DNA of 32,000 nucleotides from Candidatus Nanosynbacter sp. BB002 (GCF_037013405.1 NZ_CP146064.1:540001-572000); one strand, 5' to 3'; positions 6,934 through 27,751 are shown, counted from the stretch's first letter. Program-made: numbers and translations. Notes: generated by a model not told the origin, from the letters alone.

Positions 6934-7007
6934 TGGGGATTGGCCAAGCGGTAAGGCAGCGGGTTCTGGTCCCGTGATCGGGGGTTCGAATCCCTCATCC
7001 CCAGCCA
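6934..7007 (+). tRNA. tRNA-Gln (anticodon CTG), CCA encoded
   Basis: Sequence TGGGGATTGGCCAAGCGGTAAGGCAGCGGGTTCTGGTCCCGTGATCGGGGGTTCGAATCCCTCATCCCCAGCCA folds as a cloverleaf. Acceptor stem is TGGGGAT/ATCCCCA, anticodon stem GCGGG/CCCGT with loop TTCTGGT, and the T-loop is TTCGAAT. It closely resembles E. coli tRNA-Gln. Confidence 0.9.
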
Positions 7008-11737: not shown

Positions 11738-12244
11738 ATGAATAACGAACGATTACCAGAAACAAGTTTTGCAAAAAAGGAAAAAATAGAGAACAGGCTC
11801 AGAAAAACTGTGGGGATGCTAGCCATAGGTGTCACTGGATTAGGCCTTGGCTTATATCCATGGGAAGGCAGGTCTAGCGCCGAAGCACCAGACAGCCCTG
11901 CTGCTGTCGCAGAACAAGGCGCCGTTGATTTTGTTAACGCGGCACACGAAAACCCATCACTGCTAGGACCGGAAAAAACTTTCTCTGTTGATTTACAGGA
12001 TGGTGATTCGGTTAACTCTGCGGCACAGCGAGCCGCTGAAGAAGTCGGCGAACAAGAGGGGTGGTCTGCAGACCAGATTAACCTTAATATTGGTGTAGTC
12101 ACAGAGGCTAGTCAGGAAGTCCTTGACAATTCAAAATACAAGATTCCTCCAAAAGAATTCACTGTTACTATGGTCGAGAAAGACACTAATGGCGATGGCA
12201 AGAAAGAAGTCTTTCCTGCAGACGCAAAACCTAAAGCTAAATAA
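11738..12244 (+). CDS. hypothetical N-terminally anchored/secreted protein
   Basis: The track start is TTG 11702, which is actually the -35 hexamer. I prefer ATG 11738 (MNNERLPETSF...). One TM helix (MLAIGVTGLGLGLY), then an acidic soluble part. Strong promoter directly upstream. Its 3' end overlaps the leuS 3' end by 8 nt. Confidence 0.5.
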   Translation: MNNERLPETSFAKKEKIENRLRKTVGMLAIGVTGLGLGLYPWEGRSSAEAPDSPAAVAEQGAVDFVNAAHENPSLLGPEKTFSVDLQDGDSVNSAAQRAAEEVGEQEGWSADQINLNIGVVTEASQEVLDNSKYKIPPKEFTVTMVEKDTNGDGKKEVFPADAKPKAK

Positions 12245-15044
12245 CAACGTTAAGTAGTTTACCCGGAACATAAACCATCTTTTTAGGTGGTTTATTGTTT
12301 GTGAATTTTTGAACATTGGCGTCAGCTAAAGCTGCTTCTTCAATACCCTGCTGGTCGATGTCGGCTGGCAGCTCCAGCTTTGATCGAAGCTTACCATTGA
12401 CCTGGACGATGATGGTCATTACATCACTCACCAGATATTTCTCGTCCCACTTTGGCCAGTGATTGACGTGAATGGTATCAGTGTGGCCCAGTTCCTGCCA
12501 CAACTCTTCGGTGATATGTGGCGCGAATGGCGCCAAAATCTGTAGCAGGCTCTCCAGAGTAAACTGCCACGTTTCTGTCGCTTGCATACCGTGTGCTTCT
12601 TTGAACTTGTATAGGCCGTTCACCATTTCCATCATTGCCGCCACCGCTGTATTGAACTTTTCGTCCTCAATGTCGCGAGTGACTTTTTTGATGGTTGAGT
12701 GCGTTAGGCGAAGCAGTTCTTGGTCATCTTCAGAAGTAGATTCAGGTGCTGCTACAAACTCCTGCACCATATTCCACACTCGATTGAGGAACCGATACGT
12801 CCCTGGCACACCGCGCGGATCCCACGGTGCATCCATATCATACGGCGCGATGAACATCTCGTAAACACGCAGCGCATCGGCACCGTAACCGCTATCCATA
12901 ATCTCCATTGGATCGATGACATTGCCCTTGGATTTACTCATCTTTTGGCCGTCTGGCGCCATGATGTAAGCGTTATACATCATCCGCTTGAATGGTTCTG
13001 GCGTCGGCACTAGACCGAGTTTATAGAAAAAGCGCATCCAAAAACGACTGTACAATAGGTGCGCTACCGCATGGTCGGCGCCATTGTAATAATCAACCGG
13101 CATCCAATGACCAATTCTCTCAGGATTCCACGCCTCGGCATCATTGTGCGGATCAAGATAGCGCAGGAAATACCAGCTGGAGCAGGCATAGCCATCCAGT
13201 GTGTCAGTTTCGCGTCGACCTTCACGCCAATTGTCGCCCGCTGGCTTCGGCTCGGTGATCGGCACCGTTTTACCCGTTTCAACATCAGCCCACACGCGCA
13301 CCCAATCATCAACTTGTGCTAGGACTGACGTATTACCGCCCGTTGGCTTGAAGTTCTCAACTTCTGGCAGAATCACCGGCAAGCACTCATCCGCTACAGC
13401 GATTGGCCTGAAACCGTCAACATGGACCATCGGAATCGGCGCGCCCCAGTACCGCTGGCGAGAAATCAGCCAGTCACGCATTTTGTAAGTAGTTTTGCCT
13501 CGACCAGAACCCTGCTGTTCCAGCCAGGCTACGATTTGTTCGCGGGCGTCCTCGCTGCGCGTGCCGTCAAATTGCCCAGAATTGATCAACTCACCTTCGC
13601 CAGTGTAGCAGCCGACGTCTGCGGAATCCTCCGGTTTATCAACCACTTGAACAATTGGCAAGTCAAATTTCTCAGCAAAGGTAAAGTCACGTTCATCATG
13701 CGCCGGTACCGCCATGACTGCACCCGTGCCATAGCCACTCAGTACATAGTCCGCCACCCAAATTGGCAGCTTCTGACCGTTGACTGGGTTGATGGCATAG
13801 CTGCCAGTAAAGACGCCGGATTTATCTTTGTTTTCCTGGCGCTCAACGTCAGACTTCTGCTGAGCCGCTTGAACGTATGCTTCAACCTTGGCGCGCGTGT
13901 CGGCATTGACCAACTGAGAAACCAGTGGGTGTTCTGGCGCCAAAGCCACGTAGCTGGCGCCAAACAAGGTGTCGGGTCGCGTGGTGAATACGGTGATTGG
14001 TGGTACATACTCGAAATCATAAACCGTGAATGTATCCTCTAGTGAAACTTCTTCACCATAGAACTTTTTAAAACTCAACAATTTTTCATTATCATCACTA
14101 TAACGTTCATGTCCAGAAATATCGTTAGATATATCTCTTAGTGGAAGCTGGTGGATATTAACTATTTTTATATATCCAAATGAATATACTTTTTCTCCAT
14201 CACGCACCATAGCATCAGCAATATCGCCAACCTTCAGTTTTTTAGCTTCATACCTAATTGTATTGGTTTTTTCACCAGAAATAACTTTTTCTGCCAAATC
14301 AGGGGTGAATTTTAAAGAGTCAGATGCCGTTAAATTAAGGGTAAAGTCAACTTCCGCGCCAACCGACCGGCCAATCCAATTTTTCTGCATGGTTTTGACC
14401 ATCTCCGTCCAGTCCAAGTCGTCAGTTGCCTCCAACATCTCATCGGCGTAGGCGGTGATGCGGAAAAACCACTGTTTGAGGTTGCGCTTGGTGACAGGAT
14501 TGCCGCAACGCCAACATTTGCCGCCCTCAACCTGCTCGTTAGCCAGCACCGTATTGTCAGTATCGCACCACCACTGCGGCTGTTCCTTTTGGTACGCCAA
14601 ATCGTGTTTGTATAGCTGCGTAAAAATCCACTGAGTCCATTTGTAGTACTCTGGATCAGCCGTAGAAATTTCCTTCGACCAATCATAACTAAATCCGAGT
14701 CGCTTCAGCTGAGCGATGAAGTGTGCCTTGGCTTCATCGTGCGCCACTCGCGGCGTTTTACCAACCTTGATGGCGTAGTTCTCCACTGGCAGGCCAAAGC
14801 TATCCCACCCGATTGGATGATATACATTGTAGCCTTGCTGACGCTTCAGGCGCGCTTTGATGTCAGCAAACTGAAACGTCCGACCGTGACCGATATGAAT
14901 ACCAGCCCCGGTAATGCCAGGAAGCATACTCAAACTATAGTATTTTGGGCGCGTCGTATCACCAAGGTCAGTGACGTAGGTACCATCAGCCTCCCATTTA
15001 TCTTGCCATTTTTTCTCAATTTCCGTCGGATTGTAGCGTTTCAT
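12237..15044 (-). CDS. leuS: leucine--tRNA ligase, carrying an extra inserted domain
   Basis: HIGH motif (GIHIGHG), Zn-1 (CWRCGNP), editing domain (TTRPDTLFGASY, GTGAVMAVPAHDERD) and KMSKS (QKMSKSKGN). The track start 15101 lies inside the upstream terminator hairpin. I prefer ATG 15044 (MKRYNPTEIEKKWQ), the canonical LeuS N-terminus. Confidence 0.95.
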   Translation of the reverse strand: MKRYNPTEIEKKWQDKWEADGTYVTDLGDTTRPKYYSLSMLPGITGAGIHIGHGRTFQFADIKARLKRQQGYNVYHPIGWDSFGLPVENYAIKVGKTPRVAHDEAKAHFIAQLKRLGFSYDWSKEISTADPEYYKWTQWIFTQLYKHDLAYQKEQPQWWCDTDNTVLANEQVEGGKCWRCGNPVTKRNLKQWFFRITAYADEMLEATDDLDWTEMVKTMQKNWIGRSVGAEVDFTLNLTASDSLKFTPDLAEKVISGEKTNTIRYEAKKLKVGDIADAMVRDGEKVYSFGYIKIVNIHQLPLRDISNDISGHERYSDDNEKLLSFKKFYGEEVSLEDTFTVYDFEYVPPITVFTTRPDTLFGASYVALAPEHPLVSQLVNADTRAKVEAYVQAAQQKSDVERQENKDKSGVFTGSYAINPVNGQKLPIWVADYVLSGYGTGAVMAVPAHDERDFTFAEKFDLPIVQVVDKPEDSADVGCYTGEGELINSGQFDGTRSEDAREQIVAWLEQQGSGRGKTTYKMRDWLISRQRYWGAPIPMVHVDGFRPIAVADECLPVILPEVENFKPTGGNTSVLAQVDDWVRVWADVETGKTVPITEPKPAGDNWREGRRETDTLDGYACSSWYFLRYLDPHNDAEAWNPERIGHWMPVDYYNGADHAVAHLLYSRFWMRFFYKLGLVPTPEPFKRMMYNAYIMAPDGQKMSKSKGNVIDPMEIMDSGYGADALRVYEMFIAPYDMDAPWDPRGVPGTYRFLNRVWNMVQEFVAAPESTSEDDQELLRLTHSTIKKVTRDIEDEKFNTAVAAMMEMVNGLYKFKEAHGMQATETWQFTLESLLQILAPFAPHITEELWQELGHTDTIHVNHWPKWDEKYLVSDVMTIIVQVNGKLRSKLELPADIDQQGIEEAALADANVQKFTNNKPPKKMVYVPGKLLNVVI
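12270..12305 (+). terminator. possible terminator for gene 11738..12244, embedded in the leuS 3' coding region
   Basis: 8-bp AT-rich stem ATAAACCA/TGGTTTAT (12270..12277 with 12288..12295), then TGTTTGTGAATTTTT. The stem is weak. Confidence 0.3.
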
Positions 15045-15051
15045 ATCTGTA

Positions 15052-15060
15052 ATTATAGCA
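15052..15060 (-). promoter_or_regulatory. extended -10 (TGCTATAAT), 7 nt before ATG 15044 (leuS); leaderless candidate
   Basis: Minus strand reads gattttcgTGCTATAATtacagatATGAAACGC. It lies directly after the upstream terminator hairpin. No Shine-Dalgarno, and no room for a T-box leader. Confidence 0.55.
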
Positions 15061-15091
15061 CGAAAATCGCCCCACATGAGAGTGGGGCGAT
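15061..15091 (-). terminator. intrinsic terminator after gene 15113..16294
   Basis: 9-bp stem ATCGCCCCA/TGGGGCGAT (15066..15074 with 15083..15091). On the minus strand it is followed by TTTCG and then immediately by the leuS -10. Confidence 0.6.
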
Positions 15092-15112
15092 TGACTGTCA
15101 ACGAAAGGCTAG

Positions 15113-16294
15113 TTACGCTTCGTCAGCGTCACTGGCTGAGTTTGTCGAAGTACTAGTTTTTGGAACAAAGCTAGACAGTGGGCTTGATTGGAGCTTTTTC
15201 ATCACATCTTTCAAGTCTTTTGCATCAGATGGTGCTTCAACCTTCTTGGCATCGCCATACATGACGCCTGTCTCAAGAGAGACCTTATTGCCCTCAGATG
15301 AACCCTCAAATTCTACGCGGCGAACTTGCCTCTTTGAGTTGTCGATCCACAGTTTCAGAGAAACATCTACCTTCTTGAAATCAAGTGCATCTGTGTCGAG
15401 CGCTTTCGAGCTACTGCCGCCACATTCTTTGATCTTCTTGGCATATGTTGTTTCACTCAATGCCTTGGCAAAGTTTTTACGTTTCTCAAGAGTAGCGTCA
15501 CTCAGGTCAATTTCAAATCCACGCAGACCATCTTTTGTTCCCAAATCTTTTTTGATTTGTAGGAAATTGTTGTCGCGGTATACTTGAGCGATCTCTTCGC
15601 GAACAGCAGTATCATCCTTAGCGCGGCGAACTGCATTCATCACACATTTTGCTTCTTCTGACTGCTCTAGGTCGTCTGAAGAGATCTTGATCCAGTGGCC
15701 GTCGATCTCATTGATGAGCGTCTCAAATTGTTTCAGCATCGTTTCTTTGAGTGATTTTGTCTGAGATCGGCCAGAAATCGCACCACCTGGCGAGGAAACG
15801 CTTTCCATGTAACGATCTATCGCTGTCTCGATTGAGCTACGAACATTATCCAGTTTAATATACGTTGCGTCTTCAGTATTGCGTACATTCACTTTTGGCA
15901 GAGAGAATTGTATTGACTTGTCAGAACCACCGGCGTTAACTGTTATATCAGCCTGCAGCTCTTGACTCTTCTCTGCGTCTGATGATTTGAGCTTGATGGT
16001 GACTTTTTGATTACCCTTACCTTCAAAAGTCAGCCGTCCTTCAGTGACAGAGTTCTTCGACATGATCGCGTTAACAATTGACGCTTCCAGCGCACGCTGT
16101 GGGTTATTAAATACCAACAGATACCACAACAGTCCTGCAATCAAGCCGATGGTAACTAACGACCCCACAACCAAACTAATAATCAACTTTTTGCGGTTTT
16201 TCTTTTTCGGTTTGTTGATCGCACCCATGATAGGCGGCTGCTCAGCCGGCGGCGTTGACTCAGCCGGTGCTGTTGTTGGCTGCTGTATGCTCAT
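15113..16294 (-). CDS. hypothetical membrane-anchored extracytoplasmic protein
   Basis: 393 aa. Pro-rich N-terminus, a KKKNRKK stop-transfer stretch, one TM helix (LIISLVVGSLVTIGLIAGLLWYLLV), a large soluble domain and a Ser/Thr/Asp tail. GGAGGG Shine-Dalgarno at 16298..16303, with its own -10 and a downstream terminator. No family recognised. Confidence 0.6.
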   Translation of the reverse strand: MSIQQPTTAPAESTPPAEQPPIMGAINKPKKKNRKKLIISLVVGSLVTIGLIAGLLWYLLVFNNPQRALEASIVNAIMSKNSVTEGRLTFEGKGNQKVTIKLKSSDAEKSQELQADITVNAGGSDKSIQFSLPKVNVRNTEDATYIKLDNVRSSIETAIDRYMESVSSPGGAISGRSQTKSLKETMLKQFETLINEIDGHWIKISSDDLEQSEEAKCVMNAVRRAKDDTAVREEIAQVYRDNNFLQIKKDLGTKDGLRGFEIDLSDATLEKRKNFAKALSETTYAKKIKECGGSSSKALDTDALDFKKVDVSLKLWIDNSKRQVRRVEFEGSSEGNKVSLETGVMYGDAKKVEAPSDAKDLKDVMKKLQSSPLSSFVPKTSTSTNSASDADEA

Positions 16295-26779: not shown

Positions 26780-26865
26780 TGGTGCGCAAGGCGGGAATCG
26801 AACCCGCACGACTTTTGGTCAAGGGATTTTAAGTCCCTCGCGTCTACCAATTCCGCCACTCGCGC
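26780..26865 (-). tRNA. tRNA-Leu (anticodon TAA), CCA encoded
   Basis: The reverse complement is GCGCGAGTGGCGGAATTGGTAGACGCGAGGGACTTAAAATCCCTTGACCAAAAGTCGTGCGGGTTCGATTCCCGCCTTGCGCACCA. Acceptor stem GCGCGAG/CTTGCGC, anticodon loop CTTAAAA, a long variable arm, and T-arm GCGGG/CCCGC. Confidence 0.9.
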
Positions 26866-27664: not shown

Positions 27665-27751
27665 TGGTGCGAGCGAGAAGACTTGAACTTCCACGAACCT
27701 AAGTTCACTAGCCCCTCAAGCTAGCGCGTCTACCAATTCCGCCACGCCCGC
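27665..27751 (-). tRNA. tRNA-Leu (anticodon GAG), CCA encoded
   Basis: The reverse complement is GCGGGCGTGGCGGAATTGGTAGACGCGCTAGCTTGAGGGGCTAGTGAACTTAGGTTCGTGGAAGTTCAAGTCTTCTCGCTCGCACCA. Anticodon stem CTAGC/GCTAG with loop TTGAGGG, and a long variable arm. Confidence 0.9.

Follow-up and report, generated by a model that had tools for sequence, protein, structure and literature searches.

ASCH proteins of the YqfB type hydrolyze N4-acetylcytidine (ac4C), and 19 of 19 ASCH proteins tested in a recent preprint removed ac4C from tRNA (10.64898/2026.02.27.708502). The same preprint defines the semi-conserved ASCH octapeptide as G-x-K-x-x-[E/T]-x-R, with the Lys and the Glu/Thr essential by mutagenesis, and describes archaeal members that gain strong tRNA binding via a fused helix-turn-helix (HTH) domain; it makes no mention of synthetase fusions (10.64898/2026.02.27.708502). 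In bacterial leucyl-tRNA synthetase (LeuRS), the CP1 hairpin is the zinc-bearing neck, CP1 is inserted outside this neck, and the CP1 domain has to swing in the catalytic cycle (PMC4138327). Here, we analyze a 32,000-nt stretch of the Candidatus Nanosynbacter sp. BB002 genome (NZ_CP146064.1:540001-572000; hereafter, the window), in which leuS encodes a LeuRS with an ASCH domain built into its CP1 editing domain. The parts of leuS concerned are the following.

12237..15044, minus strand: leuS, bacterial-type leucyl-tRNA synthetase, 935 amino acids (TIGR00396, Pfam, motifs)
14343..14360, minus strand: strand GAEVDF, first strand of the editing-domain hairpin, directly N-terminal to the insert (the pre-insert segment equals PF13603 positions 1-18)
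13998..14342, minus strand: ASCH domain insert, 115 amino acids in frame (TLNL...EYVPP), an island of 33% G+C (Pfam PF04266, AlphaFold/Foldseek, allele comparison, composition)
14253..14276, minus strand: ASCH octapeptide GEKTNTIR (G-x-K-x-x-T-x-R, the Thr or 'GKTR' YqfB type; translation, alignments)
14106..14114, minus strand: G-H-E motif, second conserved patch of the ASCH subfamily (84%, 82%, and 75% conserved in the subfamily)
13518..13997, minus strand: rest of the CP1 editing domain, beginning ITVFTTRPDT and including GTGAVMAVPAHDERD (PF13603 positions 22-185, residues 368-528)

Comparison with the closest insert-free allele (L002/P0030) reveals 115 residues where that allele has the 8-residue loop VVNGQDAI; the exchange adds 321 nt net and preserves the frame. 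Insert-free relatives read VGAEVDF-VVNGQDAI-ITVFTTRPDT at this site. PF13603, unbroken over positions 1-185 in the insert-free allele, is here split into positions 1-18 before the insert and a second match that resumes at position 22. Because PF13603 matches both sides of the insert, the ASCH domain interrupts the first hairpin of the CP1 editing domain and does not sit just before that domain, where a preliminary description of the window had placed it. The ~113 extra residues counted in that description map exactly to 13998..14336, and the allele comparison revises the insert to 115 residues at 13998..14342. The C terminus of the insert is positioned four residues ahead of the threonine-rich editing motif TTRPDT, and downstream of it lies GTGAVMAVPAHDERD, whose Asp we take to be the conserved editing-site Asp. 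We rejected 'CP1 hairpin' as a name for the site, as in bacterial LeuRS the term denotes the zinc-bearing neck (PMC4138327).

The insert is also a compositional island. Over 13998..14336, G+C is 33.0% (the preliminary count was ~32% for 14041..14340), compared with 51.1% in the rest of leuS and 47.8% in the window, and G+C at third codon positions is 22% vs. 57%. This segment is the lowest-G+C 339-nt stretch of the 32-kb window (mean 0.478, standard deviation 0.041, z ~ -3.6), which sets the dip outside the normal variation that the preliminary description had considered as an alternative. Its flanks, earlier put at 57-63% G+C, are lower, at 50-57% in 150-nt windows.

Apart from the insert, the enzyme is as canonical as first described. 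The open reading frame (ORF) scores 940 bits with the equivalog model TIGR00396 (leuS_bact; cutoff 548), contains the Pfam domains tRNA-synt_1, tRNA-synt_1_2, and Anticodon_1, and retains in translation intact HIGH (residue 50), CWRCG, TTRPDT (354), GTGAVMAVPAHDERD, AHDERD, and KMSKS (701) motifs. The ORF spans 12237..15101 on the minus strand, being open upstream to a TTG at 15101, with a likely start at the ATG at 15044 (MKRYNP). Public gene calls for identical leuS loci give 935, 946, and 978 amino acids, with start choice as the sole difference; the 935-residue form is favored because the N-terminus MKRYNP is conserved, including in distant homologs such as P0121.

The identity of the insert is supported by profile and model. 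Against Pfam PF04266 (ASCH, PUA-like clan; cutoff 21.2), the full protein scores 27.9 bits and the insert alone 32.8 bits, covering profile positions 1-100 of 103. An AlphaFold (AF2) model generated from four divergent insert variants, with a predicted local distance difference test score (pLDDT) of 84 and a predicted template modeling score (pTM) of 0.75, was compared with the PDB by Foldseek; the best matches are 9KYF/9KYH, the E. coli YqfB ac4C amidohydrolase (E 1.5e-5, template modeling score 0.66/0.73), and the next are all ASCH structures (EF3133, ZmASCH, PH0355, TTHA0113, and others). The initial assignment as an ASCH domain thus holds, and the modeled fold is the ASCH β-barrel. The sole NCBIfam match is the ac4C amidohydrolase model NF003443, at 17.2 bits against a cutoff of 93. 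Because it scores far below this equivalog cutoff, the insert is an ASCH domain of YqfB-like type and not a YqfB ortholog; the resemblance to YqfB noted in the preliminary description is real at the motif level (GEKTNTIR vs. GRKTITIR), and both proteins are acidic, with isoelectric points (pI) of 4.9 for the insert and 4.7 for YqfB.

A profile search with the insert retrieved 225 relatives, mostly free-standing proteins of 105-116 amino acids that match end to end; a word-index protein search with the insert alone gave no match, a limitation of the index, as the exhaustive profile search found these 225. An unbootstrapped neighbor-joining tree of the domain groups the LeuRS inserts in one clade that also holds four free-standing proteins, all encoded by genuine separate genes, one of which is translationally coupled to a GNAT acetyltransferase gene. 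At L028:108-991, the free-standing ASCH protein P0124, among the closest relatives of the insert, overlaps a downstream GNAT gene by 4 nt, and His_Phos_1 and Inositol_P genes follow beyond GNAT; this locus may represent a writer/eraser operon.

In 154 members of the subfamily, conservation falls on F12, G23, K25 (99%), T28 (96%), R30 (99%), D40, G77-H78-E79, Y95, and F110, and the insert of the window keeps all of them. Its K25, T28, and R30 align with YqfB K21, T24, and R26, placing the domain in the threonine type. Every LeuRS insert examined, down to those only 46-61% identical to that of the window, retains the octapeptide K, T, and R, and the sole first-position change is a G-to-A replacement in L022.

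All related genome loci belong to Candidatus Saccharibacteria (TM7), mostly human-associated metagenome-assembled genomes together with a single-cell genome of oral taxon HOT-348. Among the best 120 LeuRS homologs, 31 carry the insert, and the short loop is found in 88. On the LeuRS core tree, the insert is present in the three deepest branches (P0084, P0062, and P0118) and missing from a large middle group, while the crown clade that contains the LeuRS of the window includes both states, its insert-free proteins being 96-97% identical in the core. More divergent LeuRS proteins have ASCH in the same hairpin, as do another seven species-level genomes, whose inserts are 46-61% identical to that of the window, and the same junctions recur in >40 independent assemblies from different projects. 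The preliminary description had allowed that the insert might prove a common, already annotated LeuS feature: it is common in Saccharibacteria, and the public clusters of insert-bearing LeuRS (771, 169, and 246 members) are named only 'leucine--tRNA ligase'. The ASCH-LeuRS fusion thus appears, on strong comparative grounds, to be old and patchy in Saccharibacteria: old because the diverged versions found at this site resemble their host genomes in composition, and patchy because LeuRS proteins ~97% identical to that of the window lack the insert.

The AT-rich island itself is younger than the fusion in its pattern of divergence. Insert DNA is 97-99.7% identical to that of the window across 16 species-level genomes of a clade with ~48% G+C, whereas the 600-nt flanks are 88-93% identical, and in these 16 species the low-divergence tract matches the insert limits almost exactly. 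Variable codons number 18 in the insert vs. 55 and 73 in flanks of equal length, and an independent metagenome scan revealed the same contrast between insert and flank. The nearest distinct insert belongs to the HOT-348 lineage and is 88-90% identical to that of the window, with flanking leuS at 62-80%. The insert (34% G+C) looks native in the HOT-348 genome (36-38% G+C), and deeper lineages likewise have inserts of 42-51% G+C, near the values of their genomes. Between the window and HOT-348, synonymous divergence (dS) is 0.47 in the insert, with synonymous sites in the flank saturated. The HOT-348-type cluster contains many insert variants, and the window-type insert is nearly monomorphic.

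The simplest reading of these comparisons is that the island represents a recent introgression, through homologous recombination, of an already fused allele from a low-GC lineage related to HOT-348, its sharp AT-rich composition being explained because the insert would have come recently from such a lineage. Later spread by homologous recombination across at least 16 species-level genomes appears well founded, and natural competence is documented in Saccharibacteria (PMC10633639). The later acquisition proposed in the preliminary description therefore stands as a recent arrival; what arrived was a LeuRS segment already fused, and not a foreign ASCH gene entering this leuS. A low-GC host with an insert >93% identical was absent both from the HOT-348 cluster members and from the metagenome scan, the best being 89-90%. 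At the insert junctions, searches for target-site duplications and terminal inverted repeats returned only short chance-like matches, and an Rfam scan detected no intron or structured RNA match. A phage origin was considered and rejected, with no tblastn match to the insert in 50,697 phage records. We consider the anatomy and evolutionary history of the insert, as described to this point, very likely to be correct.

Aligned with L003-L018, leuS of the window is a mosaic in which 100%-identical blocks alternate with blocks 8-12% diverged; in L004, for example, nothing differs from the window in the 5' 700 nt, and in L015 and L016 nothing differs in the 3' 400 nt. Such a pattern indicates very frequent recombination between species within leuS. 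At L036:1501-1845, a high-GC host whose flanks are 89-90% identical to the window has an insert of only 93% identity, which at 11 of 38 diagnostic sites, mostly clustered at the 3'-terminal insert nt 275-344, has the HOT-348-type state, suggesting that introgression occurred a second time or that the insert itself recombined. The HOT-348-type insert at L051:1501-1838 (BNJS01002410.1) contains frameshifts and stops in translation, reflecting either a pseudogenized insert or assembly indel errors.

Purifying selection on the insert is indicated by sequence comparison at two depths. The ratio of nonsynonymous to synonymous divergence (dN/dS) between the insert of the window and that of HOT-348 is 0.136, and within the clade, 14 of 18 variable insert codons are synonymous.

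LeuRS is not the only synthetase with a domain of this subfamily. The valyl-tRNA synthetase (ValRS) P0265 (1062 amino acids; NF004349, 920 bits) contains an internal ASCH domain at residues 576-663, after ...WYGHRIPVWY; just upstream (residues ~460-560), a second, Glu-type ASCH-like module (GSKTVELR) is discernible by eye and has no Pfam call. A partial isoleucyl-tRNA synthetase (IleRS) at L050:1141-3315, plus strand (contig JAEAMG010000829.1; TIGR00392, 256 bits on the fragment; WTTTPWTLP motif), harbors three modules: an ASCH domain 48% identical to the insert, after GWDCHGLPAE (Pfam, 30.9 bits); an LMW-phosphatase/ArsC-like domain (31 bits); and the probable start of a GNAT domain (18 bits, under the Pfam cutoff), which ends with the locus. 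An acetyl writer and an eraser may thus be combined within one synthetase. ValRS and IleRS captured the subfamily independently of LeuRS, and repeated uptake of the domain, in each of the three CP1-bearing class Ia synthetases, points to a functional link with tRNA. Other fusions of the subfamily, found among P0139, P0144, P0135, and P0131, are to NUDIX, NYN, and Mur ligase; the fourth joins ASCH to a C-terminal tail of 100 amino acids that is MazG-like by eye and has no Pfam match.

We tentatively propose that the insert would act as a tRNA-tethered N4-acylcytidine amidohydrolase or reader, with a catalytic, tRNA-directed mechanism. The prediction is drawn from motif retention, acidity like that of YqfB, and embedding near the site that receives the tRNA 3' end. 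In outline, the ASCH domain would be translated within LeuRS, with the octapeptide Lys, Thr, and Arg kept by purifying selection, and would hydrolyze or read N4-acylated cytidine (ac4C-type), with LeuRS serving as the tRNA-binding, targeting scaffold; a tRNA 'eraser' or quality-control activity would then stand beside the site that proofreads the tRNA acceptor end. It would be accessory, a LeuRS ~97% identical in the core presumably working without it. Anatomy, history, and mechanism blended into a single explanation form the account we favor, one that we judge evenly balanced between right and wrong.

Several observations weigh against this mechanism. The insert fails the equivalog comparison with YqfB by a wide margin (NF003443, above), and its sequence similarity to YqfB is marginal (PDB search E 0.13 to 1TE7; hhalign probability 46%, residues 10-71 only). 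The GHE patch varies in four LeuRS lineages (GHC in P0062, GQA in L023, GHH in L024, and GRE in L025). Opposite the YqfB general acid Glu74, HMMER sets Asp84, invariant in the four aligned LeuRS inserts and near the variable GHE Glu; the hhalign alignment, however, spans only residues 10-71. The acidity of the domain makes RNA binding on its own unlikely. Some ASCH proteins may retain deacetylase activity only as an evolutionary relic (10.64898/2026.02.27.708502), and our literature search found nothing on an ac4C writer in Patescibacteria. An AF2 model of the editing domain with the insert has a pLDDT of 48, with only ASCH folded, and gives no orientation of ASCH relative to the editing pocket. 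Because near-identical insert-free LeuRS alleles exist, the insert is dispensable and its role accessory. The last point concerns the substrate, as the only known ac4C site in tRNA-Leu is eukaryotic C12, and the window encodes the following tRNA-Leu genes.

26780-26865, minus strand: tRNA-Leu, anticodon TAA, encoded CCA, G12
27665-27751, minus strand: tRNA-Leu, anticodon GAG, encoded CCA, G12

Both have G, not C, at position 12, excluding ac4C12 of the eukaryotic type and weakening the idea of ac4C12 on tRNA-Leu as the target.

Other explanations have to be weighed beside a tRNA-tethered amidohydrolase or reader. The domain could be a non-catalytic appendage, a possible but rather doubtful reading in which it provides an extra contact to tRNA-Leu or another RNA, or a rigid spacer that tunes the CP1 swing, with the motif kept for binding; it would then resemble other domains appended to aminoacyl-tRNA synthetases. 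In its favor, RNA binding is a classic property of ASCH and PUA-like folds, with TRIP4 and ZmASCH as nucleic acid binders, and the insertion site adjoins the editing motif. Some LeuRS lineages have lost the GHE patch, possibly a sign of relaxed catalytic constraint, and purifying selection is equally compatible with a binding role. The domain is, however, acidic (pI 4.9) like the enzyme YqfB and has none of the surfaces rich in Lys and Arg that are reported for ASCH proteins that bind RNA; deep divergence has left the exact catalytic K, T, and R unchanged, and deacetylase activity is present in every ASCH protein tested so far. A dN/dS of 0.14 and the motifs kept in lineages 46-61% identical speak against a tolerated passenger in a permissive surface loop, hitchhiking on leuS recombination among competent Saccharibacteria, as do an age sufficient for amelioration to host G+C in several lineages, a low-divergence tract that is the insert itself and not random flanking blocks in 16/16 species, and independent capture of the subfamily by IleRS and ValRS. 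We regard the passenger reading as unlikely, although the presence/absence polymorphism among ~97%-identical LeuRS, the mosaic of recombined blocks in leuS, and the frameshifted reading of the HOT-348-type copy L051 agree with it.

Quite unlikely, too, is the reading that ASCH is a salvage enzyme, hydrolyzing free host-derived ac4C or N4-acyl-cytidine nucleosides or nucleotides (the proposed role of YqfB), with the LeuRS fusion serving only for co-expression, to which insertion within the editing-domain hairpin would be a costly route. Saccharibacteria rely on nucleotide salvage, YqfB-type enzymes prefer the free nucleoside, and the fusion of the subfamily to NUDIX suggests nucleotide-level chemistry; against these stand the recurrence of capture, specific to three tRNA-binding class Ia synthetases, and the existence of free-standing copies of the same clade, which would suffice. 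Extremely improbable is an intein, intron, mobile intervening sequence, or assembly chimera, for which the sharp compositional break inside an essential gene is the point in favor. Inteins begin with Cys or Ser and end with His-Asn followed by Cys, Ser, or Thr; the junctions F|TLNL and VPP|ITV lack the expected splice residues, and Pfam identifies no Hint/intein domain. Also opposed to this group of readings are the lack of an Rfam match, the lack of target-site duplications or terminal repeats, the intact frame under purifying selection, and identical junctions in the >40 independent assemblies.

The amidohydrolase proposal has a bolder form, rather unlikely as a whole, in which the embedded ASCH would be an active tRNA-directed deacylase in the proofreading domain of a synthetase: either an ac4C/N4-acyl-cytidine eraser, the first RNA de-modification enzyme so placed, or an N-acyl-aminoacyl-tRNA deacetylase. 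It would be part of a wider, so far undescribed Patescibacteria habit of wiring GNAT/ASCH acetyl writers and erasers into the three CP1-bearing class Ia synthetases, and would be sweeping oral Saccharibacteria by natural transformation since it is advantageous.

The surroundings of leuS are those of an ordinary housekeeping locus, with the order Mur ligase, hypothetical, leuS, NusB, NUDIX, RNase III, and TrmD, also found in insert-free relatives; no mobile-element genes were found around leuS. The 393-residue ORF directly upstream of leuS has a counterpart of the same size and position in L002 (393 amino acids), and L001 has two unannotated ORFs there instead, of 353 and 365 amino acids. The 180-residue ORF is on the strand opposite to leuS, with an 8-nt overlap at the leuS stop. 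These two ORFs, others without a Pfam match, and the remaining tRNA genes are as follows.

15113-16294, minus strand: ORF without Pfam match, 393 amino acids
23193-24305, minus strand: ORF without Pfam match, 370 amino acids
5839-6330, minus strand: ORF without Pfam match, 163 amino acids
11702-12244, plus strand: ORF without Pfam match, 180 amino acids
27578-27651: tRNA-Cys, between the two tRNA-Leu genes
6934-7007: tRNA-Gln

Our literature search retrieved no paper that joins ASCH with leucyl- or other aminoacyl-tRNA synthetases, beyond an unrelated mention of TmcAL in the preprint, in agreement with the initial remark that no LeuS of this architecture was known. The ASCH family and LeuRS are already known; what is new is how the two are combined, that such a combination recurs in class Ia synthetases, and that it has spread laterally inside an essential gene as a cassette the size of a domain. 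Aminoacyl-tRNA synthetases are much studied, and a separate enzyme family placed in the proofreading domain of an essential one, with separate occurrences in LeuRS, IleRS, and ValRS, would be new to the field. ASCH proteins were proposed as tRNA ac4C erasers only in 2026, and fusion to a specific tRNA-binding enzyme offers a testable pointer to substrate. Alleles ~97% identical with and without the domain constitute a natural experiment in a genetically manipulable group, and the locus provides an evolutionary example of a whole domain moved between species by recombination in an essential gene, with its source readable from composition.

Compared with YqfB (PDB 1TE7, 9KYF; NF003443), the insert has the same ASCH β-barrel of ~105-115 amino acids, the same threonine-type octapeptide G-x-K-x-x-T-x-R, and the same acidity; it differs in being only ~20% identical, in residing within another enzyme where YqfB is free-standing, and in conserved G-H-E and F/Y-Y-G patches that belong to its own subfamily. 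Class Ia synthetases with accessory domains (NF040702, 'isoleucine--tRNA ligase, N-acetyltransferase domain-containing') similarly have a foreign small-molecule or acyl-transfer domain built in, but the synthetase, insertion point, and domain are different, and L050 scores 80 bits against the NF040702 cutoff of 1999. The canonical LeuRS modules (the ZN-1 'CP1 hairpin' neck, the CP1 editing domain, and the leucine-specific domain) are likewise lineage-specific insertions into the LeuRS body; unlike these, and distinct from the CP1 hairpin, ASCH is recognizably an enzyme family in its own right, present in some close relatives and absent from others, and it is exchanged laterally. The archaeal ASCH-HTH fusions (Afu3ASCH and Pku4ASCH) and other ASCH 'tRNA ac4C erasers' (10.64898/2026.02.27.708502) share with it the combination of a catalytic ASCH domain and a separate tRNA-binding partner to which targeting is outsourced, whereas in LeuRS the partner is a whole essential synthetase and the ASCH domain is internal to the editing domain instead of being joined to a small HTH.

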